NCBI GenBank assembly: GCA_945919455.1
Contig: CAMEJH010000003.1
Location: 807 to 64,806 of the forward strand
Direction: 5' to 3'
From: an uncultured Clostridium sp.
Lineage (GTDB): Bacteria > Bacillota > Clostridia > TANB77 > CAG-508
DNA: 64,000 nt
In this document: positions 26,820 through 50,601 of the stretch, in pieces
Numbering within the stretch: the first letter of the stretch is position 1
Layout of the letters: each line of letters opens with the position of its first letter
The notes under the pieces: generated by a model
Database searches by the model: none
What the model was told of the DNA's origin: nothing
The model's input: only the letters and a program-made list of their open reading frames with translations
Position numbers and translations under genes: made by a program

Positions 26820-26820
26820 T

Positions 26821-28041: not shown

Positions 28042-28058
28042 GAAATGTAGGGGATTAA

Positions 28059-29216: not shown

Positions 29217-29218
29217 AA

Positions 29219-30542: not shown

Positions 30543-30544
30543 TA

Positions 30545-31957: not shown

Positions 31958-32131
31958 ATCTAAAAATGTGAATAACTCTATGAAAAAGAATATAGATAGA
32001 TTTTCAAAAGATTTTTTGCTTACAATTAATACAGAAAAAACTAAAAGAAATGAGGTTACAAAATGGAACTACATTTGACAAAAGATAAAAAATATTACCA
32101 AAAAATACCTAAAATTTTTTTCTAAAAACTA

Positions 32132-32160
32132 TTGCATAAAAAAATATGTAATGTTATAAT
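32132..32160 (+). promoter_or_regulatory. Sigma-A-type promoter (TTGCAT-17-TATAAT)
   Basis: TTGCAT at 32132-32137, a 17-nt spacer, then TATAAT at 32155-32160, upstream of the 32198 gene. Confidence 0.55.
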
Positions 32161-32197
32161 CAAATAGAAATTTAACAAAGGAAAGGGAGAATGAAAA

Positions 32198-33338: not shown

Positions 33339-33351
33339 AAAGGAAGAAAAA

Positions 33352-34206: not shown

Positions 34207-34215
34207 GGGGAAGAG

Positions 34216-34947
34216 ATGGAAGAATTAGATTTAAAAGAACTATTACAAATATTTTGGGAAAAGAAATTACAAATAATATTAATAACAGCAATATTTATGA
34301 CTATTGGAGTAATATATACTATAGCATTTGTAACACCAAAATATGAATCAAAAACAACACTATTATTAGCAACAAATTCCTCAGGAGATACAAATGGAAA
34401 GGAATCTATAACAACAACAGATGTAACATTAAACTCAAAATTAGTATCTACATATAGTGGACTTGTAAAAAGTGATAAAATTATAAGAACTGTAATATCA
34501 AACTTAGGAATAGATGAAACTGCAGAAGAAGTTAAAAAAAGTGTAAGTGTAACACAAGTATCAGATGCAGAAATAATAGAAATAAAAGTAAAAAATGAAG
34601 ATCCAGTTTTAGCATCAAAAATAACAAATGAAATAGCAAAAGTATTTATAGAAAGAGTAAAAGATGAATTTTATGGAATAGACAATTTACGTATAGTAGA
34701 TGAAGCAGAGGTTTCAGAAAAACCATACAATATAAATCATGTAAAAGATATTGTAATATTTGGATTTGTAGGACTAGTAATAGCATCAATGTATGTACTT
34801 GTAGCAAATATGCTAGATACAACAATAAAATCATCAGAGGATATAGAAAAAATAGCAGGAATAACAGTACTAGCATCTATACCTGTTTATGAAACAGCAC
34901 TAGAAGAGAAAAAAACTAAAAACAAAAGAAAAGGAGGAAAAAGATAA
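34216..34947 (+). CDS. Polysaccharide chain-length determinant / BY-kinase transmembrane modulator (Wzz, CpsC/YwqC-like)
   Basis: MEELDLKELLQIFWEKKLQIILITAIF N-terminus (Wzz motif) and a second TM near the C-terminus. It immediately precedes the kinase gene with an ATGA overlap. Confidence 0.8.
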   Translation: MEELDLKELLQIFWEKKLQIILITAIFMTIGVIYTIAFVTPKYESKTTLLLATNSSGDTNGKESITTTDVTLNSKLVSTYSGLVKSDKIIRTVISNLGIDETAEEVKKSVSVTQVSDAEIIEIKVKNEDPVLASKITNEIAKVFIERVKDEFYGIDNLRIVDEAEVSEKPYNINHVKDIVIFGFVGLVIASMYVLVANMLDTTIKSSEDIEKIAGITVLASIPVYETALEEKKTKNKRKGGKR

Positions 34948-35984
34948 TGAAAAAAGAATTAATAGCGCATAAAGATCCAAAATCTCCTGTTTCTGAAATT
35001 TTTAGAACTTTAAGAACAAATATACAATTTATGAATTCAAACAAACAGCTAAAAACTTTATTAGTAACTTCAACATTACCAGGTGAAGGAAAAAGTTGGG
35101 TTTCTTCAAACTTAGCTGTAGCATTTGCACAAGCAGGAAAAAGAGTTGTATTAATAGATGCAGATATGAGAAAAGGAAGATTATATAATATATTTGGTGT
35201 ATTACCAAGACCTGGATTATCAAACTATCTTTCAGGAGTAAATGAAAATAGTTTCGAAAAAAATAATTTAGTAAATTTTTTAAGAGAAACAGAAGTACCA
35301 AACTTATATGTAATGCCAGCAGGTAATATTCCACCAAACCCATCAGAACTATTAATAACACCTCAGATGGTGAATTTACTAGATGAATTAAAACAAGAAT
35401 GTGATTTAATAATAATAGATGGTACACCATCAAAACTAGTTACAGATGCAGTAATATTATCTAGAATAGTAGATTCTACAATTGTAGTTACTGCACATAA
35501 TCAAACCAAAAAAGATGATTTACAAAAAGTAATTAGAGATATAAAAAATGTTGGAGGAAATGTTGCCGGAGTAGTATTTAATAAAATACCAGTTTCTGCA
35601 AAAAAATACAATGAAACATATTATTATTCATCAGTTACTCAAAAAACACAGGTAAAACCTAAAACAGAAGTTAATTATGAACAAAAAAGAGAAATACAAA
35701 GAAGCAGAACAATAGAAAATAATAGTAATGACAGAGAAACAAGAGAAACTCAAGAAAATTTAAAAACAAAAAGCAATGAATTAGAAGTTGAGGTTGAAAT
35801 ACCAAAGGCATTAAGAAAAGAAAAAACAGAACAGTTTATAACAATTCCAATGAGAGAAGAAACCAAAATACAAATAGAACCAGAAATTCCAAAAGAAAAA
35901 ACAGCAGAAGAAAGAACTGCAGAAGTACTTAAAGAATTTAATGAATATCTAAAGAAAGAAAAGAGAAGGAAAAACTATAAATAG
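34947..35984 (+). CDS. Tyrosine-protein kinase (BY-kinase, CpsD/YwqD-like) with a long C-terminal extension
   Basis: Walker A TSTLPGEGKS, Walker A' VVLIDADMRKG, Walker B LIIIDGTP and Tyr cluster YNETYYYSS. About 115 extra Lys/Glu-rich residues follow. Confidence 0.85.
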   Translation: MKKELIAHKDPKSPVSEIFRTLRTNIQFMNSNKQLKTLLVTSTLPGEGKSWVSSNLAVAFAQAGKRVVLIDADMRKGRLYNIFGVLPRPGLSNYLSGVNENSFEKNNLVNFLRETEVPNLYVMPAGNIPPNPSELLITPQMVNLLDELKQECDLIIIDGTPSKLVTDAVILSRIVDSTIVVTAHNQTKKDDLQKVIRDIKNVGGNVAGVVFNKIPVSAKKYNETYYYSSVTQKTQVKPKTEVNYEQKREIQRSRTIENNSNDRETRETQENLKTKSNELEVEVEIPKALRKEKTEQFITIPMREETKIQIEPEIPKEKTAEERTAEVLKEFNEYLKKEKRRKNYK

Positions 35985-35993
35985 GAGAGGAAC

Positions 35994-36698
35994 ATGATAG
36001 ACTTTCATTCACACATATTACCCAATGTAGATGACGGTTCTACAAGTATGGAAGAAACATTAAAGTTAATACAAGAAGCAAAAAATGCAGGTTTTACAAA
36101 AATAATTTCTACATCTCATTATATAGAGGACTATTATGAATGTGATGAAGAAACTAGAAAAGAACTTTTAGAACAAATCAGAGCAAGTTATTTAGATATA
36201 GAAATATGTCTTGGAAATGAAATATATTTAACAAGCGAAATTCCACAATTAATAAAAGAAAAAAAGGCATCAACTATAAACAATTCAAGATATGTATTAT
36301 TTGAACTTCCAATGAATGCAAAACCATTTAATGCAAAAGAAACAGTATATAGGCTAATAGAAAATGGATATACACCTGTAATAGCACATCCAGAAAGATA
36401 TAGTTATGTGCAAGAAACTCCTGAATATGTAGAAGAATTAGCTAATATGGGGGCATTATTTCAAGCAAATTTTGGAAGTGTAATAGGTTTATATGGAAAA
36501 AAAGCAGAAAAGAATGTACAAAAATTACTAAAACAAGATCTTATACCCTTTTTGGGCTCAGATGTTCATAGAACAGATCAAATTTATACAAAAGTACCAA
36601 AAATTTTAAAAAAATTAAATAAAATTATTTCAGAAGAAAAAATACAAGAACTTACAGAAATAAATCCACAAAAAGTTCTTAATAATGAAGAAATTTAA
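35994..36698 (+). CDS. Tyrosine-protein phosphatase, PHP family (CpsB/YwqE-like)
   Basis: MIDFHSHILPNVDDGS, SHY, AHPERY and GSDVH metal-binding motifs. Confidence 0.85.
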   Translation: MIDFHSHILPNVDDGSTSMEETLKLIQEAKNAGFTKIISTSHYIEDYYECDEETRKELLEQIRASYLDIEICLGNEIYLTSEIPQLIKEKKASTINNSRYVLFELPMNAKPFNAKETVYRLIENGYTPVIAHPERYSYVQETPEYVEELANMGALFQANFGSVIGLYGKKAEKNVQKLLKQDLIPFLGSDVHRTDQIYTKVPKILKKLNKIISEEKIQELTEINPQKVLNNEEI

Positions 36699-36710
36699 TG
36701 AATATAATAT

Positions 36711-38052: not shown

Positions 38053-38107
38053 ATATTACAACAATATTACAATTATATTAAGTTTATATTACAAAACAAA
38101 AAGTTTG

Positions 38108-38136
38108 TTGATTTTAATCTAAAAAAGATGTAAAAT
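38108..38136 (+). promoter_or_regulatory. Candidate promoter for the filament operon (TTGATT-17-TAAAAT)
   Basis: TTGATT at 38108-38113, a 17-nt spacer, then TAAAAT at 38131-38136. Confidence 0.35.
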
Positions 38137-38180
38137 AAATAAAGATAGCATATAAATGCGTATATAAGGAGGAATAAAAT

Positions 38181-39401
38181 ATGGCAGTAAATCCAATGCA
38201 AAGAAAATCAAGGAATTCATTTTTATTAGGAATAATAATAACATTATTAATTACAGGAATAATAATAATATTTTTATTCTTACAATTAAAAAAAGTAAAG
38301 GATGAACAAGCAGCAGCAGCAGCTTTGTTAGCTAATGTATATACATTGAATCAGGATGTAAAATCAGGTCAAATATTAACAGAAGATATGTTTTCATTAA
38401 AAAGTGTTGATAGAACAACAATACCAAGTAATGCAACTTCTGTTTTTGATGTAATATCTACATGGTTTTTACAAACAAAAGATGGAGAACCAGTACATAG
38501 AGACAAAGATGGATTATATTTAAATACTCCAGATTATATAATAGAAATATATTCTGAAAATGGAGGATATTATAAATTAAATAATGGTGAACATGAAACT
38601 ATAAGTATAAGAAATGATCCATATTCAGATGATGATGGAAGTTATGTTATTGATAGTAATAATATAGATACAACAACTAGAATATATGAAGAACCAACAG
38701 GAAATTTATACACATATAAGTGGGACAATGCTAACAAAACTAGAACGAAAGTGTACTTAGAATTAAATAATGTACCAGTGTTAGCTAAAGTTGATATGAA
38801 TGCTAATACAGTTATTACACCAGATCTTGTTGTTCAATCAGATGCAGTTGTTACTGATGATGTAAGAAGAGAAGAATATAATATGATAGTATTGCCAATG
38901 GATTTGATGACAGATGATTATATAGATATAAGATTAATGCTTCCTAACGGACAAAACTTTATAGTTATATCAAAAACACAAGTAGAAGTTCCTACAAATC
39001 AAGATGGATCTTATGTAGCTGATACTTTATGGTTAGAATTAAGAGAAGATGAAATTTTAGCATTATCTAGTGCTATAGTAGAAGCATATGGTATACCAGG
39101 TGCAAAATTATATGCAAATAAATATGCAGAACCTGGAATGCAAAACGCAGCTGTACCAAATTATACACCAAATAATGCTGTAACAGCTTTAATTAATGAA
39201 AATCCAAATATTGTTGAACAAGCATCACAAGAATTAGCTGCTAGATACTCACAACATTCAAAAGATGTAAGAAATCAATATTTGCAATCAGTAATAAATG
39301 ACGAAATGGGATATGATTCAAATACTCAATCTGGACTAGATGAATCATCATCAAATACACAAGCAACAAGAAAACAATACTTAGAATCTTTAACTTATTA
39401 A
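38181..39401 (+). CDS. CpaB/RcpC-like pilus assembly protein (N-terminal TM, SAF-like segment, beta-clip-like C-domain) with a large insertion
   Basis: TM FLLGIIITLLITGIIIIFLFL, then VYTLNQDVKSGQILTEDMFSLKSVDRTTIP (SAF-like), then DDYIDIRLMLPNGQNFIVISKTQV (resembling the CpaB GDxVDV...V strand). RBS aaggagg. Context with a Tad-type ATPase supports the call. Confidence 0.5.
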   Translation: MAVNPMQRKSRNSFLLGIIITLLITGIIIIFLFLQLKKVKDEQAAAAALLANVYTLNQDVKSGQILTEDMFSLKSVDRTTIPSNATSVFDVISTWFLQTKDGEPVHRDKDGLYLNTPDYIIEIYSENGGYYKLNNGEHETISIRNDPYSDDDGSYVIDSNNIDTTTRIYEEPTGNLYTYKWDNANKTRTKVYLELNNVPVLAKVDMNANTVITPDLVVQSDAVVTDDVRREEYNMIVLPMDLMTDDYIDIRLMLPNGQNFIVISKTQVEVPTNQDGSYVADTLWLELREDEILALSSAIVEAYGIPGAKLYANKYAEPGMQNAAVPNYTPNNAVTALINENPNIVEQASQELAARYSQHSKDVRNQYLQSVINDEMGYDSNTQSGLDESSSNTQATRKQYLESLTY

Positions 39402-39407
39402 TACAAT

Positions 39408-39428
39408 AAGGGCATGTAAAATGCCCTT
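39408..39428 (+). terminator. Intra-operon hairpin (possible attenuator or processing site)
   Basis: aagggcat (39408-39415) pairs with atgccctt (39421-39428). No T-run follows. Confidence 0.3.
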
Positions 39429-39479
39429 ACTGTGAAGTTTTAATACATTATTAGAAATAAGAAAGGAAGAAAAAACAAT

Positions 39480-40166
39480 ATGAAAAAAATCGGGTTTATA
39501 GGCGTATATGACAAAATCGATTTAGTGTTATGTATTGCAAAAATACTAACAAAAGCAGATAAAAAAGTTTTAGTTGCAGATGCTACCAAAATGCAAAAAA
39601 GCAAATATGTAGTACCAGCTATAAACCCTACAAAATCATATATAACAGAATTTGAGGGAATAGATGTAGCTATTGGATTTGATTCTATAGAGAATATAAA
39701 ACAATATTTAGGAATAGAAAAACAAGAAGATTTTGAATATGACATAATGCTAGTTGATACTGATGATTATGAAGGCGTAATTAATTATAATATCCAAGAT
39801 TCAGAAAAAATATATTACATAAGTTCATTTGATGCATATTCATTAAAAAAAGGAATTGAAATATTAACAAGAGTACAAGTTCCAATGCATATGACAAAAA
39901 TATTTTATTCGAAATCAATGCTAAAAGAGGAAGAAGATTATTTTGATTATTTAGCATTAGGACTAAAAATTGTGTGGAATGAAGAAAAATTATATTTTCT
40001 ATTAGAAAACGGAGATCTGGCAGCAATAATAGAAAATCAAAGAGTTTCAAAAATTAAATTAAAAAATTTAAGTAATGAATACAAAGAAAATGTAATTTTT
40101 TTAGTTAATGATATAGATAAAGAAATTGGAGAGAGAAAAATAAGAGGCATAGTGAAAAATCTATAA
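39480..40166 (+). CDS. ParA/MinD-fold protein lacking a Walker A lysine (TadZ/CpaE-like, degenerate)
   Basis: MKKIGFIGVYDKIDLVLCIAKILTKADKKVLVADAT follows the beta1-P-loop-helix layout of MinD/ParA, but GxxGKT is replaced by VYDKID. A later DIMLVDTD is Walker B-like. Confidence 0.45.
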   Translation: MKKIGFIGVYDKIDLVLCIAKILTKADKKVLVADATKMQKSKYVVPAINPTKSYITEFEGIDVAIGFDSIENIKQYLGIEKQEDFEYDIMLVDTDDYEGVINYNIQDSEKIYYISSFDAYSLKKGIEILTRVQVPMHMTKIFYSKSMLKEEEDYFDYLALGLKIVWNEEKLYFLLENGDLAAIIENQRVSKIKLKNLSNEYKENVIFLVNDIDKEIGERKIRGIVKNL

Positions 40167-40179
40167 AAGGAGAATTAGA

Positions 40180-41046
40180 ATGTCAATTGTAACATTTTGG
40201 AATGAAGATAGAGAACAAACTGGAAAAACTTTAACCGCAGTAGCTGTGGCAACAAAAATGGCAATAGAACGTAATTTTAAAATATTGTTATTATCAACAA
40301 GTTATATGGAACCAACAGTAAAAAATTGCTTTTGGACAGACAGTGCTCAAAAAAATTTAGGCATATTAGCAGGAAAAGGCAGTAACATAGCAGTTGAAAG
40401 TGGAATAGAAGGTTTATCAAAGTTAATTGCAAGCAATAAAATACAACCAACAATAATTACAGATTACACAAGAGTAATATTTAAAGACAGATTAGAAGTT
40501 CTAAATGGCTTTTCTGGATCACCAGATGCAACAGATGATGGCAATTTGCTAAATTATAAAAAAACATCAGAAAGTTATCCGGAATTAATAAAATTAGCAA
40601 ATCAATTTTATGATATGGTATTAGTCGATATTGATAGTATGTTGGATAAAACAATAAGAGATCAAATATTAGAAATGGCAAATGTTAATGTTTTAGTAAT
40701 TAGCCAAAGACTAGAAAGTCTAAATAGATATAACGAACGAAAAAAAACAGATAAACAAATAATAGGACCAAAATGTATACCTGTAATAGGAAAATATAAT
40801 AAAAATTCTAAATACAATAAGAAAAATATGATGAGATATTTGAATGAGAAAAAAGATTTAAATCTTGTTCCATTTAATACATTATTTTTTGAAGCAGCAG
40901 AAGAAGCTTCTGTAACAGAATTCTTCTTAAAGATGAGAGATATAAAAGATACTACTGATGATAATTATATTTTTATGTCAGAAGTATTAAAATTAACAAA
41001 TAATATTATAACTAGATTACAAGACTTGCAAATGAAAATGAGGTGA
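40180..41046 (+). CDS. ParA/MinD-fold protein with a deviant P-loop (TadZ/CpaE-like)
   Basis: SIVTFWNEDREQTGKTLTAVAVATKMA (GKT retained) and a Walker B-like MVLVDID. It lies adjacent to the Tad-type ATPase. Confidence 0.5.
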   Translation: MSIVTFWNEDREQTGKTLTAVAVATKMAIERNFKILLLSTSYMEPTVKNCFWTDSAQKNLGILAGKGSNIAVESGIEGLSKLIASNKIQPTIITDYTRVIFKDRLEVLNGFSGSPDATDDGNLLNYKKTSESYPELIKLANQFYDMVLVDIDSMLDKTIRDQILEMANVNVLVISQRLESLNRYNERKKTDKQIIGPKCIPVIGKYNKNSKYNKKNMMRYLNEKKDLNLVPFNTLFFEAAEEASVTEFFLKMRDIKDTTDDNYIFMSEVLKLTNNIITRLQDLQMKMR

Positions 41047-41050
41047 GAAA

Positions 41051-43039
41051 ATGTCAATATTTAACACAATTCTAATAATTGTTATATTTGTTGTAGCAAT
41101 AATGGCAGTTCTATATTATGTTAATAAAAACAAAAATGCAGAAGTAGAGCAAGAGGTTGAAAAAGATGATAAAACATATACTCTTGAAAAAATGAGAGAC
41201 TATGTAAAAAAGAGATTAGATGAAATAACTAAAATAAACTTATATGATATAGGATTATCAGAAGAGGAATTAAAAAGAAGAAAAAATAAAAAATATGCAT
41301 TAAAAAAGGCATTAAAAGGATGTACATATGGAGATGTTAATGATAAAAGATATGTAAAAGAACTAATTGGGGATCTATTATCAAAAGAATATGGTATAGA
41401 CGAAACAAATATATCAAACGCAATTCCATTTGACATTCCATCATTGCTTACATCTCAAGATAAATTTGACATTTTACTTTATACATATAAAAAAGAATTT
41501 GGATATGAAGCTTTAACACAGTTAATTAAAAGATATAATTTAGCAACATTAAAATATATCCAAGGAGAGACAAAGCCTTGTTATGTAATAACAGATGATG
41601 AGATTGATGAAATATATGAAAAAGAAAATATAGTATTATCGTTCCAAGATAAACTAGAAGTAGTAGTACAAAGAATTTATCAACACTATAAAGGATATAG
41701 TTCTATAGATGAAATAAGAGACATGAATATAGACGGTGTATCTGGAGGTGTATCTGGATTACCAGAAAGCTTCTTAAGTCAAGTTGCACAAACAGAGGGA
41801 GATTATTTAGAACAAGTAAGTGAGCACAAAGTTCCAAGAGCTTGTGATAGTATATGGATATTTTTCCAAGGTAAATCAATACGTTTAGCATTTTTATCAT
41901 TTGGAACAGAATCAGAACTAAAAAGAGTTTGTCAAAATATTTACAAATATAATAATCCTGGACAATTATCAGATACAAATGGTTATAAGATCAATGAAAT
42001 GAAAGATGGTTCACGTGTTGTTGTAGTAAGACCAAGCATGTCAGAAACATGGGCATTCTTTGTAAGAAAATTTGACGTAAAAAGAGCTACACTAGAACAA
42101 ATAGTAACTTACCCAGGATATGAAGAAACAATTAATTTATTAAAATATCTTGTAAAAGGTGCAAGAATTATATCACTAACAGGTGAGCAGGGTTGTGGTA
42201 AAACAACAATGCTTATGGCAATGATAGAAAACATATATGAAACAATGAACTTACGTATTACAGAAACTGCATTTGAGTTACACTTAAGAAAAATTTATCC
42301 AACAAGAAACATATTATCAATGCGAGAGACAGATACAATAGCTGGACAAGAGTGTTTGGACGTTCAGAAAAAAACAGATGGTTCTGTAAACATCATAGGT
42401 GAGGTTGCAACAGACCCCGTAGCATCTTGGATGATACAATCTGCACAGGTTGCATCTAAATTTACATTATTTACTCACCACGCTAAAACATTTCCAGATT
42501 TAGTAACAGCTCTTCGTAACTCAATGTTAAGAGCAGGAGTATTCAAAAACGAAAAAACTGCAGAAGAACAAGTTGTACAAGTACTAAACTTTGATATACA
42601 TTTAGTAAAAGACTTTAGAGGAAGAAGATATATAGAAAGAGTAACAGAATGTATACCAGTAGAAGATCAATCAACATATGATCATGACTACAAAAGTGAA
42701 AAAACAATGGATGGAAAAGTAGAAAAATTTTTCCAAAATGCAACAACATATTTTTCAAAATCAACAGAACAAAAATTATATACATATCAAAATATATTAG
42801 AATATGTCGATGGAGAATATGTTATAACCAATAAAATATCAGATAAAAATCTTCAAGAAATGAGAGCTAATATGGATGAATCAGATGTTGAAGAGTTTGA
42901 TAAATTTGTTGAAAGAAATTGGGGAGAACAAATAAGAAAAGAAAAATTGGAAAGACAAGCAGAAAACGTTGGAGTATCAGTTAGTTTAGCAGATACAGAT
43001 TCTCCAAAAAGAAGAGGAAGAAAACCAAAAAATGCATAA
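41051..43039 (+). CDS. Type II/IV secretion-family ATPase (CpaF/TadA/VirB11-like) with an N-terminal transmembrane helix
   Basis: Walker A LTGEQGCGKTT (about 42182-42208), ITETAFEL (Asp box-like), Walker B-like DGSVNIIGEV and His box FTLFTHHAKT. N-terminus MSIFNTILIIVIFVVAIMAVLYY. The C-terminal tail is basic (PKRRGRKPKNA). Confidence 0.75.
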   Translation: MSIFNTILIIVIFVVAIMAVLYYVNKNKNAEVEQEVEKDDKTYTLEKMRDYVKKRLDEITKINLYDIGLSEEELKRRKNKKYALKKALKGCTYGDVNDKRYVKELIGDLLSKEYGIDETNISNAIPFDIPSLLTSQDKFDILLYTYKKEFGYEALTQLIKRYNLATLKYIQGETKPCYVITDDEIDEIYEKENIVLSFQDKLEVVVQRIYQHYKGYSSIDEIRDMNIDGVSGGVSGLPESFLSQVAQTEGDYLEQVSEHKVPRACDSIWIFFQGKSIRLAFLSFGTESELKRVCQNIYKYNNPGQLSDTNGYKINEMKDGSRVVVVRPSMSETWAFFVRKFDVKRATLEQIVTYPGYEETINLLKYLVKGARIISLTGEQGCGKTTMLMAMIENIYETMNLRITETAFELHLRKIYPTRNILSMRETDTIAGQECLDVQKKTDGSVNIIGEVATDPVASWMIQSAQVASKFTLFTHHAKTFPDLVTALRNSMLRAGVFKNEKTAEEQVVQVLNFDIHLVKDFRGRRYIERVTECIPVEDQSTYDHDYKSEKTMDGKVEKFFQNATTYFSKSTEQKLYTYQNILEYVDGEYVITNKISDKNLQEMRANMDESDVEEFDKFVERNWGEQIRKEKLERQAENVGVSVSLADTDSPKRRGRKPKNA

Positions 43040-43073
43040 GAATTTTAAGAGCATAGGAGGTGTTTTTATATAA

Positions 43074-45140
43074 ATGGATACAAGTATACTAAAATATATT
43101 ATGATTGGGACAGGTGTACTATTTGCTATTGTTATTGGAGTATATATAATCTTAACCAAGAAAATGGGTAAGTCTGAATATAGACAAATGAAAAAACTGC
43201 AAGAAGGAACAAAAGCAGATTCATTTTCTATGGATGTATTGTATCAAAAGTTGTATTTAACATATATAAAAATGCCTTTTATAAAAAGATACATATATAA
43301 ATTAAGAAGAAGACTAGAAATATTAAATATAGATGATGAATATACAACAAGAAAAGATTCTGCAAGAATATTGACAAATGCAATACTTATATTAATACCT
43401 ATTGTTGCGTTGACAATAATAATAACACATAATAATACTTTACTTATGAGTATACTATTAATTTTTGAATTATTTATTGTAGATACAGCAGTAGATGGAA
43501 TGGTCGATAAAATAGATAATAATCTACTAAGAGAACAAATAGACTTTTTTGCAGAAATAAGACATGCATACCATGAATATAATATGGTTGAAGAAGCAAT
43601 ATACCAAGTATCATTAGATGATGAAAAAAATGTTTCAAAGCAAGGTGAAAAAATTTATGAAATATTAAGCTCTGATGATCCAGAGACAGAACTTGAAAAA
43701 TACTATGATATTGCACCAAATAGCTATTTAAAAGAATTTGCTGGAATATCATATTTAACACAAGAATTTGGAGATAGACAAGAAGATGGATCTTCTTTAT
43801 ATCTTAAAAATATAAACAACATAACACAAGAAATGCAGATAGAAATATTAAAGAGGGATAAATTAAATTATGTATTCCAAAGTTTAGCGTTTATCTCAAT
43901 TGCGCCAGTACTATTGCTAGAACCATTAAAGAATTGGTCAGTTTCTAACTTTACATTTACTACTAGTTTTTATAATGGAAAATTAGGAATGATTATACAA
44001 ATATTAATTGTATTATTAACAGTAATATCATATATCATGACAAGAAAACTAAAAGATAATGGAGGAGTACAAGTAGATATATCTACAAATCAGCATCCAT
44101 GGCAAGAAAAAGTATACAAAAATCCAGCTTTAAAGAAAATAATAAATGCATTTATACCAAAAAAAGGTTCAAAGGATTATAGAAAAATGCAGAAATTATT
44201 AAAGGATTCTGCATCAAAATCTAAAATGGAATGGGTGTATATAAATAGAATTTGCTTAGCAATAGTTGCATTTATTGCAACAATAATATTATCAGCACAG
44301 TTACATAGAATAGCTATAAACTATATATATACAGAACCAACAACAGAAACAGTAGTTATGGGAACATTATCAGAAGCGAACCAAAGAAAAGCAGATGAAC
44401 TTACAAAACAAGATAATTATTTTCTGGACAAGCTAAAAGGTAAACTAGATATAACCCAAGAGGAAATTGAAAAAGAGATGATAAAATCTCCTTATTATGA
44501 AGAAGGCGATGAAAAATTACATACAGATGCAGAAAGAATTTTGGAAAAACTGAACGTAGTAAATTCTGAAAATATGCAGTGGTTTGAAGAATTATTAGCA
44601 ATAGTATTTGCAATAGTTGCTTATATGGCTCCAGTTTGGATGATGTACTTCCAAAAGAAAATGAGACAAATGGATATGGAAAGCGAAGTAATGCAGTTCC
44701 AAACAATTATAGTAATGTTAATGAAAATAGAAAGAGTAAATGTAGAAATGATTCTTGAATGGTTAGAAAGATATGCAAACATATTCAAAGAACCTATATC
44801 AAGATGTGTAAACAATTATGAAGCTGGAGCTTGGGAAGCACTAGAAGAACTAAAAAATTCAGTAACAAATCAAGATATGATAAGAATTGCAGAAAGCTTA
44901 CAGGCAGCAGTAGAAAAAATTCCAATTAGAGAAGCTTTTGATGAGTTAGATGCAGATAGAGATTATCACCAAGAAAAGAGAAAAGAAACAAACAATCAAT
45001 TAATATCAAGAAAAGGACTAATAGGAAAAGGTGTAGGTTTTGCACCTATGATATGTCTATTTGTTGGATATTTAATAGTTCCATTAGTTGTAATAGGAAT
45101 CTCAAGTATGTCAGGAGCATTTACTCAATTAGGTGGATAA
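43074..45140 (+). CDS. Polytopic platform protein, TadB/TadC (GspF-fold)-like
   Basis: About 7 TM helices. The C-terminal cytoplasmic helical bundle MESEVMQFQTIIVMLMKIERVNVEMILEWLERYANIFKEPISRCVNNY...AWEALEELK...IAESLQAAVEKIPIREAFDEL follows the T2SSF repeat pattern and is followed by a TM. It sits immediately after the ATPase. Confidence 0.5.
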   Translation: MDTSILKYIMIGTGVLFAIVIGVYIILTKKMGKSEYRQMKKLQEGTKADSFSMDVLYQKLYLTYIKMPFIKRYIYKLRRRLEILNIDDEYTTRKDSARILTNAILILIPIVALTIIITHNNTLLMSILLIFELFIVDTAVDGMVDKIDNNLLREQIDFFAEIRHAYHEYNMVEEAIYQVSLDDEKNVSKQGEKIYEILSSDDPETELEKYYDIAPNSYLKEFAGISYLTQEFGDRQEDGSSLYLKNINNITQEMQIEILKRDKLNYVFQSLAFISIAPVLLLEPLKNWSVSNFTFTTSFYNGKLGMIIQILIVLLTVISYIMTRKLKDNGGVQVDISTNQHPWQEKVYKNPALKKIINAFIPKKGSKDYRKMQKLLKDSASKSKMEWVYINRICLAIVAFIATIILSAQLHRIAINYIYTEPTTETVVMGTLSEANQRKADELTKQDNYFLDKLKGKLDITQEEIEKEMIKSPYYEEGDEKLHTDAERILEKLNVVNSENMQWFEELLAIVFAIVAYMAPVWMMYFQKKMRQMDMESEVMQFQTIIVMLMKIERVNVEMILEWLERYANIFKEPISRCVNNYEAGAWEALEELKNSVTNQDMIRIAESLQAAVEKIPIREAFDELDADRDYHQEKRKETNNQLISRKGLIGKGVGFAPMICLFVGYLIVPLVVIGISSMSGAFTQLGG

Positions 45141-45155
45141 AATCAGGAGGTTTAG

Positions 45156-45959
45156 ATGGAAAATGCAACAAAAGCTTTGTTAATAGCTGCTGGAGTTATG
45201 ATAGCAGTTATGATATTATCATTATTGCTTATTGGGTATAATCAAATTTCTGATTACTATAACAAACAACATGAAAGTACTGAAGTAGATCAATTAACAA
45301 AATTTAATAGTAAATTTGAAAATTACCATAGAAACAAAATAAGAGGTAGTGACATGATATCTCTTATGAATAGAGTAAGAGATTACAATGCAACACAACA
45401 TTACCAACAAGGAACAGGATATGAAAGAATAATTGTAAAAATATCTATAGGAACGAGTAATTTAGACAGTTTTAGATATATTACACAGTCAAATAAAACT
45501 AATTATAATTTTACATATGAATCAATACTTCCTAATACAGGAATTATAACAAATGAATCTGGATCTGATGATCAATTAGTAAGTGTAACTAGTAAAATTA
45601 CTGATGAAATTAATAATAATTCATCATTAGGAGTATCTGATACAAATCTACAAACTCTAGCAGCAAATATATCTAATATTGTATTAGCAACTAGTATAGA
45701 GAATTCATCCTTAGAATATGATCAAAGAACAAGGGAAAAAAGAATAAATTTATTGAAAAACACATTAAAATTATCAGAAGATCAGATAAATAGCAATTTA
45801 GAAAAAATTAAAAAGATAACTTGTCAATATTATGAATATACTCAATTTAAAAGAGCATATTTTGACTGTACAGAAGTTAAATATGATGAAAAAACAGGAA
45901 GAGTTTGTGAAATGAACTTTGAAGTTAGAACAAATGGCGGAAATGTAGAATTCAATTAA
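45156..45959 (+). CDS. Pilin-like protein, MENATKALLIAA family (large paralogue, 267 aa)
   Basis: N-terminus MENATKALLIAAGVMIAVMILSLLLIGYNQ. RBS caggagg. C-terminal motif YFDCTEVKYDEKTGRVCEMNFEV. Many N-x-S/T sequons. Confidence 0.6.
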   Translation: MENATKALLIAAGVMIAVMILSLLLIGYNQISDYYNKQHESTEVDQLTKFNSKFENYHRNKIRGSDMISLMNRVRDYNATQHYQQGTGYERIIVKISIGTSNLDSFRYITQSNKTNYNFTYESILPNTGIITNESGSDDQLVSVTSKITDEINNNSSLGVSDTNLQTLAANISNIVLATSIENSSLEYDQRTREKRINLLKNTLKLSEDQINSNLEKIKKITCQYYEYTQFKRAYFDCTEVKYDEKTGRVCEMNFEVRTNGGNVEFN

Positions 45960-45981
45960 TATATGTGAAAGGAAATTATAG

Positions 45982-46509
45982 ATGGAAAATGCAACCAAAG
46001 CATTATTAATAGCTGCTGGGGTATTAATAGGAATAATGATAATTTCATTAGGTGTTGTGTTATATTATTCATTGCAAGTATATGTTGTAGAAACACAACA
46101 AACTATGGAAGAAAATGCTATTAGTAAATTTAATACACAATTTTTGAAATATATTAATATGACAGAAGATTCAAGTGGTGCTATTATTTTAAATGGTAAA
46201 AAATATAATATGGATTTTAGACTTAGACTACAAGATGTAATTACTGCTGCTAATATAGCCTATGAAAATAATAAACAGCTTGGACTAGAAGAAGGACAAA
46301 CAGCTGATGCAAATGAAAATAATTTATATGTACGAGTAAATGTACTTTTTAATGGGGTAACACCACAAAAAAACAGTATAGAAAAAGATATAAATAAAAC
46401 AGCTTCAGAGTTATTGCAACAAGACAATGATTATGAATATAAATGTACTGATATTGATATAAAAATAAGTGAAAAAACAGGAAGAGTTTATGAAATAACT
46501 TTTAAATAA
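45982..46509 (+). CDS. Pilin-like protein, MENATKALLIAA family (175 aa)
   Basis: N-terminus MENATKALLIAAGVLIGIMIISLGVVLYYS. C-terminal motif YKCTDIDIKISEKTGRVYEITFK. Confidence 0.6.
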   Translation: MENATKALLIAAGVLIGIMIISLGVVLYYSLQVYVVETQQTMEENAISKFNTQFLKYINMTEDSSGAIILNGKKYNMDFRLRLQDVITAANIAYENNKQLGLEEGQTADANENNLYVRVNVLFNGVTPQKNSIEKDINKTASELLQQDNDYEYKCTDIDIKISEKTGRVYEITFK

Positions 46510-46552
46510 CTCTTGAGTTAATAAAAACAAAATGATATAATGAGGATAGAAT

Positions 46553-46987
46553 ATGAAAAAAATATTTATATTTTTTGCAATTGTTATAATAGTAGTTGCT
46601 ATAATAGGAGTTAGATATTATTCTTATAAAGTAGATTATAATGCAATATTAAAAGAAAATGCAGAATATGAACAGTATAAAGATAAAGAAATATATGGAT
46701 TAGACTTAGCTTCTATGATAAACAAGACTGTTGATAAAAATTTAAAAAATAAAATAGAAAAATCAGAAGATGGAAATTTTATACAAAATGATGAAAATTC
46801 TATAGAAATAGAAATATATATTTTAGACAATGAAACAACATATAAAATGGAAACTTTCTATAATAAAGGAACAGAGCAATTTGTGCAATATTATGGAAAT
46901 ATAAAATTTAAATGTTCAAAAATAGAATATCATAAAAATACAGGAAAAATAAAATATCTATTATTTGAACAAATATCAGATAGTTAA
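46553..46987 (+). CDS. Small membrane-anchored protein sharing the C-terminal module of the pilin-like paralogues
   Basis: N-terminus MKKIFIFFAIVIIVVAIIGVRYY (not MENAT). C-terminal FKCSKIEYHKNTGKIKYLLFEQ aligns with the Cys...KTG[RK] motif of 45156 and 45982. Confidence 0.55.
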   Translation: MKKIFIFFAIVIIVVAIIGVRYYSYKVDYNAILKENAEYEQYKDKEIYGLDLASMINKTVDKNLKNKIEKSEDGNFIQNDENSIEIEIYILDNETTYKMETFYNKGTEQFVQYYGNIKFKCSKIEYHKNTGKIKYLLFEQISDS

Positions 46988-47049
46988 TAAAGTTCGATAA
47001 AATATTTTATCGATTTCAATAAACAAAAGTAAAAAGGAGGGAAAAAACT

Positions 47050-47475
47050 ATGGAGAACGCAACCAAAGCATTGCTAATTGCAGCAGCAGTTTTAGTAGCA
47101 ATACTAATTATCTCTTTAGGACTAGTTGTTTACAATATGGCTGCAGAGACAGTACAAAGTGTAAACATTGACGAGACAGAAATACAAGCACACAACGAAA
47201 AATTCACTAGATATGAAGGAGAGGCTAAAAGAGGTAATGATGTTAATGGTTTACTAAACCAAGCTTTAAATTACAATATGGCTCAAACAGATGATGCTAA
47301 AAAAGTACAAATAAGCTACAAAGGTTCAGGAGCAGGTGCAGCAACAGAAGTTCTTTTATATACTAGCCAAAAAACAAGTGCAAAAAAGGTTGACACAGGA
47401 AGAACATATAAAGTTGTAGGTATTCGTGATACAGTATCTGGATTAATAACAAAAATTGAAATAACACAAAATTAA
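47050..47475 (+). CDS. Pilin-like protein, MENATKALLIAA family; candidate major subunit (141 aa)
   Basis: N-terminus MENATKALLIAAAVLVAILIISLGLVVYNM. It has the best RBS in the operon (aaaaggaggg) and is the smallest paralogue. The sequence is Ala/Gly/Thr-rich and the C-terminus is SGLITKIEITQN. Confidence 0.6.
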   Translation: MENATKALLIAAAVLVAILIISLGLVVYNMAAETVQSVNIDETEIQAHNEKFTRYEGEAKRGNDVNGLLNQALNYNMAQTDDAKKVQISYKGSGAGAATEVLLYTSQKTSAKKVDTGRTYKVVGIRDTVSGLITKIEITQN

Positions 47476-47502
47476 TTTAATATAAGAGAAAGGAGATATA
47501 CT

Positions 47503-48120
47503 ATGGAAAATATAACAGAAGCATTAAAAATTGCATTTGGAGTTATGATGTTTGTGTTAGCATTAACCCTTAGTATATCTTGTTTTTCTCAAGCTAGAGT
47601 TGCAATTGACAATGTAATTACAATAAAAGATAGGGAATCAGAATATACATATGTTAAAACTTCAAGTAATACAAAAAATAGAATTGTTAGTGTAGAAACA
47701 ATAATTCCTACAATTTATAAGGCATACAAAGAAAATTTTAGTATAGAGTTTTATAAATCAGATGGAGTAACTCCATTATATTTATATACATATGTAGATC
47801 CAAATCATATAAAAACAAATGTAAATTATATTGATTTAAAAAGAGAAATATTGCCAGATGCAACAGAAGCAATTAAACATTTCGATACATTATTAGGATC
47901 TGAAACTAATAAGCCGTTAAATTTTAGAGATAATTTTATATATACAGATGGATTATATGAATTTTTTAAAAACAATAAATTTGAAGAACGATTGGGAGAA
48001 TATTACCAAGAAGACGCCTTAGAAGGAACTGTAACAAATACATTAGAAATAAATAAAACTAAAAAAAGAATTATATCATATATATTACAGGAACCAGCTA
48101 ATGGAGTAAGAGAACCATAA
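47503..48120 (+). CDS. Pilin-like protein, divergent MENxT family member (205 aa)
   Basis: N-terminus MENITEALKIAFGVMMFVLALTLSISCFSQ. RBS aaaggag. Confidence 0.55.
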   Translation: MENITEALKIAFGVMMFVLALTLSISCFSQARVAIDNVITIKDRESEYTYVKTSSNTKNRIVSVETIIPTIYKAYKENFSIEFYKSDGVTPLYLYTYVDPNHIKTNVNYIDLKREILPDATEAIKHFDTLLGSETNKPLNFRDNFIYTDGLYEFFKNNKFEERLGEYYQEDALEGTVTNTLEINKTKKRIISYILQEPANGVREP

Positions 48121-48169
48121 TAAAATTAGAAAGGAGAAATGTTAGTATTTTTGCTAACAATTGTTATAT

Positions 48170-48739
48170 ATGGAAGATTCAACAATTTCAATAATAGGAA
48201 TTATAATAGCATCAATATTAATGTTTATAGTTCCACTTGTTTTAATTGCAGACAGGAGTGACGATATATCACATTTAACTGTACAAACTCTTACAGCTCA
48301 ATTTGTTGATAATATTATTAAGCATGGAAAGATAACTAATGAGGATTATGGAAGGTATATTTCATCATTATCTTCTACTGGAAATACTTATGATATTGAA
48401 ATAGAAATAAAAATTTTAGATGAAAATACTGCTCAAAGAGAAACTAATAATGATACTAATGCAGGAATAGGACAAAATTCATATTATTCAATATATACTA
48501 GTCAGATTGAAGAAAAATTAGCGGAAACACAACCAGATCTATCTAACCCAACTAATTCTTTAAATAAAACAGGACAACTAATTTTAAAAGAAGGAGATGT
48601 AATTTCAGTAACTGCTAAAAATAGTAGTAAAACATTATCTCAGACACTAAAAAGCATTTATTATAATATAAAGGGAGAAGATCTTCATATTATAGCGGGT
48701 GCAAGTACTGGAACAATTGCTGTTAATGGAGCAATATAA
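48170..48739 (+). CDS. Pilin-like protein, divergent MEDxT family member (about 189 aa)
   Basis: N-terminus MEDSTISIIGIIIASILMFIVPLVLIADRS. The start is uncertain (TTG 48161 or ATG 48170). The only SD (aaggag, 48131-48136) sits 2 nt before an out-of-frame ATG at 48139. Confidence 0.5.
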   Translation: MEDSTISIIGIIIASILMFIVPLVLIADRSDDISHLTVQTLTAQFVDNIIKHGKITNEDYGRYISSLSSTGNTYDIEIEIKILDENTAQRETNNDTNAGIGQNSYYSIYTSQIEEKLAETQPDLSNPTNSLNKTGQLILKEGDVISVTAKNSSKTLSQTLKSIYYNIKGEDLHIIAGASTGTIAVNGAI

Positions 48740-48743
48740 ATAA

Positions 48744-48781
48744 AAATGGTTATTAGTGTAAATAATCATTTTATTTTTTTA
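48744..48781 (+). terminator. Rho-independent terminator ending the filament operon
   Basis: aaaatggttatt (48744-48755) pairs with aataatcatttt (48762-48773) with one G-U pair, followed by a T-run. Confidence 0.6.
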
Positions 48782-48807: not shown

Positions 48808-50601
48808 ATGAATATAATTTATACATTAACGACAGTATTAATACTTGTTTTGCATATATTAATATATAAAAAAGAGGAAAAAGAAAATATTATAAAATGG
48901 ATAGTAATAAGTATAATGCTTCTATTTTGTTATAATATTTGTATAAGTGTTATAATGTCATTAATACATATACCGATAAATTTGTTAAGTTTAACAATAA
49001 TCAATATAATAATATTATTATTACTAAGTATAAAGATTTATAAAAATAAAAAAATTCAAAAATATACAATAAATAAAATAGATATTATTGGTATTATAAT
49101 ATTTTCTTTAATTACACTAATAGTAGTAATAAAAGAATACGGAATACCATTAAATATGAATAATTCAATTACAGATGGAGCAGTACATTATTTTGCAGCA
49201 GATGAATTTTATAAATCATCAAAATTACTAGATAAAAATTCAGAAACATTTGATTTTTGGAATTTTTCAACCTTTATGCCAGGTGCATATATTAATACTG
49301 GAATTTTATTTAAAATGTTTTCTGGAATAATTGATGAAATATATTTTTGCAAAATATATTTAATATTGAATGTATTTATTTGGTATTTATCAGGTGTACT
49401 AATGTATATATTATTAAGTAAAGACAAAAAACAAGAAAAGCAAAAAATTTTACCATTAATATTTTCGTTAGTATATATGTTAGCATATCCCTTAAATAGC
49501 TTAATTGCTGGATTCTCATATCTTTCTTTAGCATTAAACTTTATAATTACAATATTAATAGTTACACAACTTAAAATTAATAGTTACTATAAATATATCA
49601 TAATGTTTTTACTAAATTTTGGATTATTCTTCTCTTACTATTATTTTTTGCCAGTAGTATATGTAGCACTATTTTTACAAATAATAATAGATGCAAAGAA
49701 AAATAAAAACAAAATATTTGCCAAAGAAAATATAGTTAATGTAATATATACTTTACTATTTCCGGGATTATTTGGACTGATGTATTTTGAAATATTCCCA
49801 CTTATTACAGCTTCACAAAATCCTATTTCAGAAACTGCTGTAGCTCTTGGAATAGAGGGCAGTATTTATAGCAATTTTATAACAAACATATTAATATTTT
49901 TAGTATTATCAATATGTCAAATAATATACAATTTAAAAAATAAAAAAACAAATATATCAGAAACAATGTTAATTTTAAATCTAATATTTTTAGTAATTAT
50001 ATTTATTGGAATGAAATCTAACATAGTTTCAAATTATTACTATTATAAATTATATTATTTAATTTGGATATTTGTTTTAATTGTAGGATATAATATGATT
50101 GAAACAATAATCTCAAAAGGAAAAATAATAAAGATTGTAGCATATATTTTAACTACAATATACTGTTTGGGAATAGTAATAGCTATGTGTTTTAACAAAA
50201 ATTTTATATTTTTTGATATATATAAAGAAAACCGCAATAATTTAAATTCTGAAATTAAAATAATATATGAAGAGGAATTAGAAGTTATTAAATACTATAA
50301 TGAAAATATTAATATAGATAAGCATAAAGACAGTAAAACATATTTTTGTGTAACACCATATGAAGCTGCTAGAGCATATTGGATATATGCACTTACTAAA
50401 AATCCATTTGACTATATAGATGTGTCATATGGAGAATATGCATATGATTTAAAATGGTTTATAGAAAGTGAGAATAATTATGCTGTAATATTTAAAGAAG
50501 ATTATTTTGGAAACTTTGATGAGATAGATAAAGAAATAGAAAAGGAAGATGTAAAAATACTTTTTAGAAATAAAATGGGAATCATCCTTGAGAAAAATTA
50601 A
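48808..50601 (+). CDS. Large polytopic membrane protein with a C-terminal soluble domain (possible GT-C-fold glycosyltransferase; function unknown)
   Basis: 597 aa with more than 12 hydrophobic segments and an early extracytoplasmic loop containing ITDGAVHYFAADEF. The soluble tail of about 120 aa starts near YKENRNNLNSE. RBS aagggag. Confidence 0.45.
   Translation: MNIIYTLTTVLILVLHILIYKKEEKENIIKWIVISIMLLFCYNICISVIMSLIHIPINLLSLTIINIIILLLLSIKIYKNKKIQKYTINKIDIIGIIIFSLITLIVVIKEYGIPLNMNNSITDGAVHYFAADEFYKSSKLLDKNSETFDFWNFSTFMPGAYINTGILFKMFSGIIDEIYFCKIYLILNVFIWYLSGVLMYILLSKDKKQEKQKILPLIFSLVYMLAYPLNSLIAGFSYLSLALNFIITILIVTQLKINSYYKYIIMFLLNFGLFFSYYYFLPVVYVALFLQIIIDAKKNKNKIFAKENIVNVIYTLLFPGLFGLMYFEIFPLITASQNPISETAVALGIEGSIYSNFITNILIFLVLSICQIIYNLKNKKTNISETMLILNLIFLVIIFIGMKSNIVSNYYYYKLYYLIWIFVLIVGYNMIETIISKGKIIKIVAYILTTIYCLGIVIAMCFNKNFIFFDIYKENRNNLNSEIKIIYEEELEVIKYYNENINIDKHKDSKTYFCVTPYEAARAYWIYALTKNPFDYIDVSYGEYAYDLKWFIESENNYAVIFKEDYFGNFDEIDKEIEKEDVKILFRNKMGIILEKN

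Follow-up and report, generated by a model that had tools for sequence, protein, structure and literature searches.

A probable Tad-lineage filament operon with leaderless pilin-like proteins in an uncultured gut Clostridium of the order TANB77

Can a type IV filament machine be assembled from subunits that are made without a leader peptide? This question is raised by a cluster of eleven genes in a 64,000-nucleotide (nt) stretch of contig CAMEJH010000003.1 (positions 807 to 64,806, forward strand; assembly GCA_945919455.1) from an uncultured Clostridium sp. of the order TANB77, family CAG-508; this whole stretch is called the window from here on. The cluster consists of 11 plus-strand open reading frames (ORFs) at 38181-48739, with intergenic gaps of 4-78 nt, and a GGAGG-like ribosome-binding site precedes ten of them. 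An initial annotation, made from the sequence alone, described eleven same-strand, tightly packed genes forming a Tad/type IVc-like filament operon with a non-canonical parts list. The packing is as described, and the assignment is supported by the homologies of the ATPase, the platform protein and two accessory proteins, g4, g5, g1 and g3 in the numbering g1 to g11 that we use for the cluster. The locus probably encodes a Tad-like filament machine of the type IVc lineage. Type IV filaments are defined by, among other features, a class III signal peptide and a prepilin peptidase (PMC10191384), and neither is found in the cluster.

The ATPase, g4 (41051..43039, plus strand; 662 amino acids (aa)), belongs to the CpaF/TadA clade of secretion ATPases. 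It has an N-terminal transmembrane (TM) anchor at residues 3-21 and, besides this, a family-specific N-domain of about 250 aa. Its Walker A, Asp box, Walker B and His box are all conserved. The annotation as a CpaF/VirB11-type ATPase had been based on GEQGCGKTT, DGSVNIIGEV and FTHHAKT, which line up with the corresponding CpaF motifs (Walker A, Walker B and His box). CpaF structures were the sole matches in a phmmer search against the PDB (E 8e-10). When a profile of the g4 family, built from 23 diverse members, was ranked against solved ATPases, the nearest was again CpaF (2.5e-24), followed by FlaI (1e-12) and the archaeal (A. fulgidus) GspE-like protein (2e-10), with weaker matches to GspE (1.6e-8), VirB11/HP0525 (about 6e-8) and PilB/PilT (about 1e-7). 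The VirB11 match is 16 orders of magnitude weaker than the CpaF match, and the ranking therefore places g4 in the Tad/archaeal branch and not in the conjugative VirB11 branch. Clustering with the conjugative VirB11/TrbB proteins, which the initial annotation had named, together with T4SS (type IV secretion system) neighbours, as an outcome that would speak against a Tad-like system, was not found by this profile ranking; g4 groups with CpaF/TadA and archaeal ATPases.

When all cluster proteins were scanned against Pfam and NCBIfam, only the SAF domain of g1, described below, passed its threshold, and every other match was sub-threshold. For g4, the Pfam T2SSE score is 22.9, just under the cut-off of 24.9, the best NCBIfam match is “TadA family conjugal transfer-associated ATPase”, far under its cut-off, and the ComGA model gives 19 bits against a cut-off of 300. 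The g4 family comprises 374 representative clusters at E < 1e-30, among those listed mostly of 600-700 aa, and the TM helix and the extra N-domain are kept across it. A scan for related loci that used one genome per species found at least 80, all from uncultured gut or rumen Clostridia. Across the 80 species-level loci listed, no gene of the cluster is as well conserved as g4, which keeps 75-94% identity.

What does this ATPase drive? The following gene, g5 (43074..45140, plus strand), encodes a 688-aa protein with about eight TM helices that appears to be a fused, two-module inner-membrane platform in the position of TadB and TadC. It had been described as a polytopic protein whose C-terminal half is GspF/TadC-like, and profile comparison argues for this. 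Residues 398-680 align with a TadB/TadC profile, assembled from four annotated Tad loci, over the full profile length, with an hhalign score of 37.3 and P 7.9e-4 (P 3.5e-4 to 7.9e-4 over the comparisons made). This score is above all 31 controls, the maximum being 24.6 for 30 block-shuffles and the reversed sequence scoring 22.4. Both halves of g5 also match proteins of a second, more distant Firmicute Tad-like locus, which lies on plasmid pCLK of C. botulinum A3 Loch Maree (7179-14248) and is annotated with hypothetical proteins only. Here, two consecutive genes directly after the ATPase gene align end to end with the two halves, the gene at 9368-10264 with residues 1-326 (P 2.3e-5, score 46; shuffled maximum 25.2) and the gene at 10284-11363 with residues 311-680 (P 4e-5, score 45; shuffled maximum 29.4). 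As the halves match two split genes in the platform position, g5 is read as a fusion of both platform modules. The lack of a T2SSF-like fold in g5, which the initial annotation had set against a Tad-like system, is not what these profile comparisons suggest. A single ORF with both modules is also found in the 80 TANB77 loci listed and in five plasmid loci, discussed below.

The platform split of canonical Tad systems is thought to stem from fission of a two-domain ancestor (PMC10191384), and a fused g5 that matches two split Firmicute genes offers a link for tracing the splitting or fusion of the Tad platform. No match of g5 to Pfam T2SSF (PF00482) was found, a search of PDB sequences with the g5 profile was also empty, and comparison of the N-terminal with the C-terminal half gave no significant internal repeat. 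The AlphaFold2 model of g5 is poor, with a predicted local distance difference test score (pLDDT) of 51 from an alignment of 39 sequences that are all at least 79% identical, and its Foldseek result was disregarded as meaningless for this reason.

Upstream of the ATPase, g1 (38181..39401, plus strand; 406 aa) encodes a bitopic CpaB/RcpC-like protein with a TM helix at 14-32, a SAF domain and a long extracytoplasmic part. Both the TM helix and the SAF-like segment of the initial annotation are present, the SAF domain (PF08666) scoring 24.6 bits against a gathering cut-off of 21. The CpaB equivalog TIGR03177 gives 16 bits (cut-off 71), and plasmid orthologues of g1 are annotated as “SAF domain-containing protein”. 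Two ParA/MinD-fold proteins had been proposed to follow. The proposal holds for g3 (40180..41046, plus strand; 288 aa), which is ParA/CpaE-like with a deviant Walker A, TGKT, and aligns with the CpaE ATPase domain (hhalign P 1.7e-4). Library scans with g3 gave weak CbiA, tyrosine-kinase and ParA matches, and its profile gave marginal ParA, CooC and CapB matches. In the g3 family alignment (A7), G15 is invariant and K16 is not, lysine being replaced by glutamine in many orthologues. For g2 (39480..40166, plus strand; 228 aa), which lacks a P-loop and is best described as a degenerate ParA-fold, TadZ-like protein, the proposal is sustained through paralogy with g3: the two align end to end (hhalign P 3.6e-4), and the alignment of g2 with the CpaE ATPase domain is marginal (P 0.011). 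There is no Pfam, NCBIfam or PDB sequence match to g2, nor to the g2 profile in the PDB. TadZ structural homology has been reported for the counterpart of g2 in a published cluster (PMC11680825).

The remaining six genes, all on the plus strand, encode small proteins, and a single N-terminal hydrophobic helix was seen in each, as previously noted. Three of them are leaderless pilin-like proteins and candidate minor subunits, namely g6 (45156..45959; 267 aa), which begins MENATKALLIAAGV..., g7 (45982..46509; 175 aa), which also begins MENATKALLIAAGV..., and g10 (47503..48120; 205 aa), which begins MENITEALKIAFGV... and has Glu6. The candidate major pilin is g9 (47050..47475; 141 aa), with the N-terminus MENATKALLIAAAVLVAILIISLGLVVYN... 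and a variable alpha/beta head. Small and bitopic, g11 (48170..48739; 189 aa) reads MEDSTISIIGIIIA...FIVPLVLIADRSDDISHL, and g8 (46553..46987; 144 aa; MKKIFIFFAIV...) is a small signal-anchored protein without the MEN motif. An N-terminal pattern is common to five of the six, g8 being the exception. The proteins g6, g7 and g9 begin MENATKALLIAA(G/A)V, while g10 orthologues begin MEN(A/I)(V/T)(E/D)AL, g11 begins MEDSTISIIG and its orthologues begin M(G/S/E)D(T/S). For g11, ATG at 48170 (MEDSTIS...) is the preferred start over TTG at 48161, and independent calls on identical contigs give 189 aa. A g11-type protein is kept in TANB77 and on the plasmids pTHECO01, pBsph, pCY186, pBpOF4-01 and C. 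argentinense pRSJ17_1.

The leaderless nature of these ORFs did not figure in the initial annotation. They open at the first start codon that follows an in-frame stop, with a ribosome-binding site upstream, and there is therefore no room for a leader peptide. No class III signal peptide or Gly cleavage site is present; in the start MENA(T/S)KAL, M-E-N abuts the hydrophobic helix directly. The motif is at offset 0 in 55 of 60 ORFs with the strict motif, and MENATKAL is the start in 95/95 aligned g9 homologues, the longer ones inspected being extended C-terminally only. In these 95 homologues, with 50-67% overall identity, residues 1-29 of g9 are invariant or nearly so and the heads are about 50% identical. 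The pilin-like genes as a set show 23-69% identity in genomes whose ATPase stays at 75-94%. The most variable gene of the cluster is g6 (23-51%), and g8, with one hydrophobic segment at 4-22, is found in the same position in related loci at 28-69% identity. On sequence grounds, an invariant hydrophobic N-terminal helix joined to a fast-evolving head appears to be the signature of filament subunits and not of signal peptides or simple anchors.

Is the predicted structure that of a pilin? The AlphaFold2 model of g9, the best modelled of the small proteins (pLDDT 84), has a helix at 2-36, a break, a helix at 42-53 and a small alpha/beta head, and its architecture as modelled is pilin-like. Ordinary bitopic proteins lacking a helix-plus-head architecture, which the initial annotation had regarded as fatal to a filament, are thus not what is predicted for g9. 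Of the six, this protein is the strongest candidate for a major subunit: it is the smallest, its gene has the strongest ribosome-binding site and, compared with the other small-protein genes, the widest upstream gap, and some species carry tandem duplicates. Comparisons of g9 with Flp-like or TadE profiles were not significant. In the non-significant TadE alignment, K6 of MENATKALL is paired with the Glu that is conserved at the N-terminus of mature TadE, which is suggestive of small ORFs that begin roughly in register with the mature TadE/Flp N-terminus. Some g9-type homologues (P0124, P0166, P0169, P0173 and P0174, but not the window copy) have C-terminal Ser/Thr/Gly-rich tails of 10-25 residues, which may be glycosylation or linker segments.

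If there is no leader, is there an enzyme to remove one? The initial annotation had listed a prepilin peptidase, a Flp-sized pilin and recognisable TadE/F/G proteins as missing from the locus, and the scans agree. No Pfam or NCBIfam match to an A24 peptidase, Flp or TadE was found in the cluster, with none for Flp_Fap or TadE at E up to 1, and no prepilin peptidase emerged when the window's polytopic ORFs were scanned with Pfam. A scan for the GxGD motif combined with TM helices found no peptidase in the window, in the 80 TANB77 loci listed (about 10 kb on each side) or in the five plasmid loci; it recovered its positive control, a Paracoccus TadV, and nothing else. The GxGD motif was not found within g1, g4, g5 or the adjoining gene g12 (see below). 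The cluster has no recognisable TadE/F/G and no secretin. It also has no Flp-sized pilin, the subunits ranging from 141 to 267 aa, and no EY motif, the N-terminus being MENATKALL. Leaderless subunits would need no prepilin peptidase step, and this would explain the missing gene. That assembly is truly independent of a prepilin peptidase is a proposal we make tentatively, and doubt about it is warranted. No published account of leaderless type IV pilins was found in a full-text literature search.

The cluster itself is already known. The related loci include those of Clostridium sp. CAG:780, Candidatus Merdicola and Candidatus Scatovivens, the last two belonging to the order TANB77, family CAG-508 (PMC13106387), and identical cluster proteins occur in gut metagenome assemblies. 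A “pilus gene cluster” of 10-14 genes has been described in 122/129 TANB77 species (Kim et al. 2024, Nat Commun 15:10726, PMC11680825). By means of AlphaFold and Foldseek, it was annotated as CpaB, TadZ, CpaE, TadA, a TadC+TadB fusion and pilin-like proteins (PMC11680825). The cluster in the window is the same, with essentially the same annotation. The published genes 927-937 encode CpaB-like (358 aa), TadZ-like (231 aa), CpaE-like (280 aa) and TadA-like (640 aa, with 1 TM) proteins, a platform of 693 aa that is an 8-TM TadC+TadB fusion, and then six small single-TM proteins (PMC11680825). The window matches them one-to-one in order, size and TM pattern, its proteins having 406, 228, 288, 662 and 688 aa, and then 267, 175, 144, 141, 205 and 189 aa.

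The published cluster ends with a 621-aa protein, “938”, which activates dendritic cells through TLR4 (PMC11680825). Proteins of the “938” type (MKLQxLAV..., 540-870 aa) are found in other TANB77 loci read directly, but the window and two related loci (L001 and L003) are without this large pilin (about 620 aa, 1 TM). The cluster has been presented as a candidate pilus marking, and perhaps mediating, the benefit of TANB77 in checkpoint-blockade cancer therapy (PMC11680825). The absence from the window genome of “938”, the protein of the published immunology, is relevant if the cluster serves as a biomarker. The cluster was termed exclusive to TANB77, and leader peptides and a prepilin peptidase are unmentioned (PMC11680825). 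The combination of leaderless subunits with the lack of a linked peptidase is a mechanistic oddity that goes beyond the published description.

How far does the system extend outside TANB77? In a tblastn search of plasmids, 34 large ones from Bacilli and Clostridia proved to carry a g4-family ATPase; the matches span about 89% of the length at 36-58% identity, and after them identity drops sharply to 24% or less. The hosts among Bacilli are Thermobacillus, Cohnella, Paenibacillus, Alkalihalophilus pseudofirmus OF4, Sporosarcina, Cytobacillus and Lysinibacillus (pBsph and relatives), and those among Clostridia are C. argentinense, C. botulinum, C. beijerinckii and Butyrivibrio (B. proteoclasticus pCY186/pCY360). 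The description “exclusive to TANB77” therefore needs qualifying. Five of these plasmid loci, which are unannotated as clusters, were inspected, those of T. composti pTHECO01, L. sphaericus pBsph, pCY186, pRSJ17_1 and A. pseudofirmus pBpOF4-01. In all five, the gene order is conserved: genes for a SAF protein, a TadZ-like protein, a ParA-like protein and the ATPase are followed by those for a platform of about 680 aa, for leaderless small proteins, for a g11-type protein and for a short protein of the 938 type, which on plasmids has 320-370 aa. The leaderless N-termini on the plasmids are MSTNASKAL, MDSVTKAI, MDSPVVKKI, MESPVVKAI and MGGSLSEGL. There are two pilin-like genes on the plasmids and four or five in TANB77.

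The clusters of pTHECO01, pBsph, pRSJ17_1 and pBpOF4-01 (L081, L082, L089 and L090) end with a gene for an SLH/cell-wall-binding protein and one for a giant protein of 960-1200 aa, which is annotated as DUF5704 in three of the four. GGDEF genes follow in three (not pBsph) and HD-domain genes in two, and these neighbours are hints of cyclic di-GMP control and of a displayed adhesin. All 34 plasmids were typed as non-mobilizable by MOB-suite, although pBsph-like plasmids conjugate. The T4SS (type IV secretion system) genes of pBsph were not found in the 46 kb inspected by its cluster, where there is instead a toxin island. Plasmids of the pBsph type are conjugative, with separate VirD4/VirB4/VirB6-like genes (PMC13239906, PMC4363355), and the plasmid pilus could therefore assist mating. 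As these versions occur in culturable Paenibacillus, Lysinibacillus, Alkalihalophilus, Clostridium and Butyrivibrio, they make the predicted pilus open to experiment.

What we infer about filament formation, subunit roles, independence of a peptidase and function can be put together as follows. The cluster would encode a Tad-lineage type IV filament machine adapted to a single-membrane cell and vertically inherited in the gut order TANB77. A membrane-anchored, hexameric CpaF-like g4 would drive the fused two-module platform g5, with the degenerate ParA-fold proteins g2 and g3 (TadZ/CpaE-like) acting as an assembly or positioning hub and the bitopic SAF-domain protein g1 (CpaB/RcpC-like) as an extracytoplasmic collar. 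Subunits would be translated without a leader, from ORFs starting M-E-N-A-T/S-K-A-L, unlike those of every characterised type IV filament. The platform would extract these membrane-inserted subunits and, by way of the invariant N-terminal helices, stack them to form a surface filament, in which g9 would be the major subunit and g6, g7, g10 and g11 minor or priming subunits. The filament might serve in adhesion or aggregation in the gut. The clade of TANB77 chromosomal clusters and Firmicute megaplasmid clusters might then be the first type IV filament lineage without a class III leader and peptidase, its pilins being “born mature”, a claim that we hold with the same reserve as that of peptidase-independent assembly. 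If it is true, leader cleavage is no mechanistic requirement for the assembly of type IV filaments, and the tractable plasmid hosts would open the immunotherapy-associated pilus of TANB77 to experiment; a step thought universal falls away if a filament is made.

Several points weigh against a Tad-like filament machine or against its independence of a peptidase. No filament has ever been seen, and the organisms are uncultured. The g5 model, with its pLDDT of 51, is too poor for fold comparison. Compared directly with canonical T2SSF, the N-terminal half of g5 gives only P 0.2-0.4, and judging from the alignments it is tied to platform proteins only via the pCLK intermediate. The alignment of g1 with three CpaB sequences is collinear, but its hhalign P is 0.22. 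The head of g9 has no structural match to any solved pilin in a Foldseek search of the PDB (best E 0.5). The lack of a leader and of a peptidase could equally mean that the small proteins are not pilins. A peptidase may also be encoded elsewhere in the genome. Just downstream of spoIVB, the related locus L003 encodes a 380-aa protein (19348-20490) with a canonical class III pilin signal (...SNAKG/VTLIALVV), a gene that has no counterpart in the window. A conventional peptidase is therefore probably present in at least some members of the clade.

Other readings of the same genes have to be set against this. The cluster could be a conjugative or mating apparatus, with a mating-pair or DNA-transfer pilus like the R64 thin pilus of IncI plasmids, of which the TANB77 copy would be a domesticated or integrated remnant. 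Its occurrence on 34 Firmicute megaplasmids, those of the pBsph type being conjugative (PMC13239906, PMC4363355), is consistent with this, as are a T4SS coupling protein and a replication-relaxation protein just upstream of the pTHECO01 cluster, the NlpC/P60 or C40 hydrolases, of a kind characteristic of transfer regions in Gram-positive bacteria, that flank the pCY186 and pRSJ17_1 clusters, and the words “conjugal transfer-associated” in the name of the best, though far sub-threshold, NCBIfam match of g4. We nevertheless consider it improbable. The ATPase is CpaF-like and not VirB11-like, and in the window and the 80 related genomes listed, the cluster occupies one chromosomal site, from the SASP and HAD genes to spoIVB, with no relaxase, coupling protein, VirB4 or integrase nearby and a GC content equal to that of the flanks. 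Fast divergence of the head domains fits exposure to a host or environment, and the GGDEF/HD genes and giant surface proteins that follow the plasmid clusters are a combination more often tied to adhesion. The lack of transfer genes near the TANB77 cluster, together with its fixed position, points to a vertically inherited chromosomal organelle for adhesion or aggregation.

Equally improbable, in our view, is a short pseudopilus or piston of the Com or T2SS (type II secretion system) kind that moves proteins, DNA or polysaccharide through the wall. Such a device would fit with a set of distinct subunits that are alike in size, which Com and T2SS systems also have, with the lack of a retraction ATPase and of an observed filament, and with an exopolysaccharide (EPS) locus directly upstream; the ATPase, however, is far nearer CpaF than ComGA or GspE, no ComEA/ComEC or secreted-substrate genes are linked, and head diversification in g9, with the S/T/G-rich tails of some homologues, suggests exposure at the surface. 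Less probable still is that the small proteins are ordinary bitopic or secreted proteins and form no filament, the ATPase and platform powering a different process at the membrane, such as one connected with sporulation. The adjoining sporulation genes in most related genomes would fit, and so would the lack of a class III signal peptide, of a peptidase and of a structural match between the head and pilins. Against it, 29 N-terminal residues are invariant across species, although signal peptides and anchors evolve quickly; copies are carried on plasmids in Bacilli that own a complete sporulation machinery; and the gene order is unlike that of the spoIIIA operon (spoIIIAA-AH of B. subtilis). 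A Tad-like filament machine thus remains the reading we prefer.

In most of the 80 loci listed with flanks present, the cluster has the same surroundings, in the order antisense SASP gene, HAD gene, g1-g11, a variable terminal gene and spoIVB. On the 5' side in the window are an EPS/capsule locus, the antisense SASP gene and the HAD phosphatase gene, and on the 3' side are the orphan gene g12 and then spoIVB. The initial annotation had placed the cluster between the HAD phosphatase gene and spoIVB; both do flank it, but g12 intervenes before spoIVB. This gene (48808..50601, plus strand) encodes an orphan membrane protein of 597 aa with about 12 TM helices, to which no Pfam or NCBIfam family was matched. 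Among the 80 loci listed, it is found only in the five closest relatives of the window, and it occupies the slot where most TANB77 genomes encode the 540-870-aa single-TM protein of the “938” type; it is an uncertain member of the system. GC content is 24-32% across the window, which is AT-rich throughout, with no compositional break between cluster and flanks.

The only sizeable non-coding gap before g1 is the upstream intergenic region at 38053..38180 (plus strand, 128 nt), the presumed promoter region. It has a weak sigma-70-like match, TTGATT-17-TAAAAT, at 38108-38136. A sigma-70 scan upstream of g1 gave matches no more numerous than in shuffled sequence, and an operon promoter in this region is for that reason only presumed. 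The terminator that had been placed at the end of the operon is in part upheld. At 48743..48781 (plus strand), RNA folding finds an AT-rich hairpin followed by a T-run; the hairpin (48743-48772) has a 12-bp stem, a dG of -8.6 kcal/mol and a z of -3.3, and it was equalled by 1/200 shuffles. It is not reported by a terminator scan that requires GC-rich stems, and it is thus a plausible but weak intrinsic-terminator candidate.

The EPS/capsule locus (22000-36700, about 24% GC), directly upstream of the cluster, includes glycosyltransferases, a Wzy-like polymerase (26821-28041), a flippase (30545-31957), Wzz (34216-34947), a CpsD-like tyrosine kinase with a long K/E-rich tail (34947-35984) and a CpsB phosphatase (35994-36698). 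At 32198-34206, a sortase gene (32709-33338) is situated between genes for a secreted 175-aa protein and a 284-aa protein with 5 TM helices, the latter weakly matching the “pilin-like conjugal transfer protein” NF045849 (E 0.007). A small LPXTG protein is encoded at 4252-4629. At 54029-55312, between ssb and a uridine-kinase-like gene, lies a gene for a cytoplasmic protein of 427 aa to which no Pfam or NCBIfam family was assigned.

Which known system is closest? Sortase-dependent pili were rejected, as the small proteins have no LPXTG and the sortase of the window lies in a separate gene group. Identity with spoIIIA was rejected on gene order and content, and a prophage origin was rejected as no family member was found in a phage collection. 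There is no T4SS family match among the cluster or flanking genes, and T4SS neighbours, which the initial annotation had coupled with VirB11/TrbB clustering as a ground for abandoning a Tad-like assignment, are thus lacking in and beside the cluster. From Com systems (type IVd) the locus differs in its ATPase, which at 19 against 300 bits is outside the ComGA clade, and in its leaderless pilin-like ORFs. Archaeal filaments (the archaellum and Epd/Aap pili) resemble the locus in their ATPases, FlaI and the A. fulgidus GspE-like protein being the next-best ATPase matches. Pilins of 130-270 aa are typical of archaea, and FlaJ is a single-gene platform in archaeal filaments. Archaeal subunits, however, always have a class III signal peptide that is cleaved by FlaK/PibD/EppA, and there are no archaeal accessory genes at the window locus.

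With the Tad/Flp systems (type IVc) of Caulobacter, Aggregatibacter and Bifidobacterium, the cluster shares a CpaF/TadA-clade ATPase, TadZ/CpaE ParA-fold proteins, a SAF protein that may be of the CpaB/RcpC type, TadB/TadC-type platform modules, the clustering of the genes and the lack of a separate retraction ATPase. It differs in lacking an Flp pilin of 50-80 aa with a G/XXXXEY motif, and in having neither a TadV/CpaA peptidase, nor a secretin, nor recognisable TadE/F/G proteins. Further differences are the fusion of the platform modules in one protein, the TM anchor and the extra N-domain (about 250 aa) of the ATPase, and the leaderless subunits of 141-267 aa. The pCLK locus is also from a monoderm Firmicute, and has a bitopic protein followed by an ATPase and two platform-position genes. 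In contrast to the window, its ATPase is 24% identical to g4, has 468 aa and has no N-terminal hydrophobic segment, its platform is split in two genes, and its five small, Flp-like pilins are of 57-77 aa and carry a classical leader (...KNKKGG/LSQLL).

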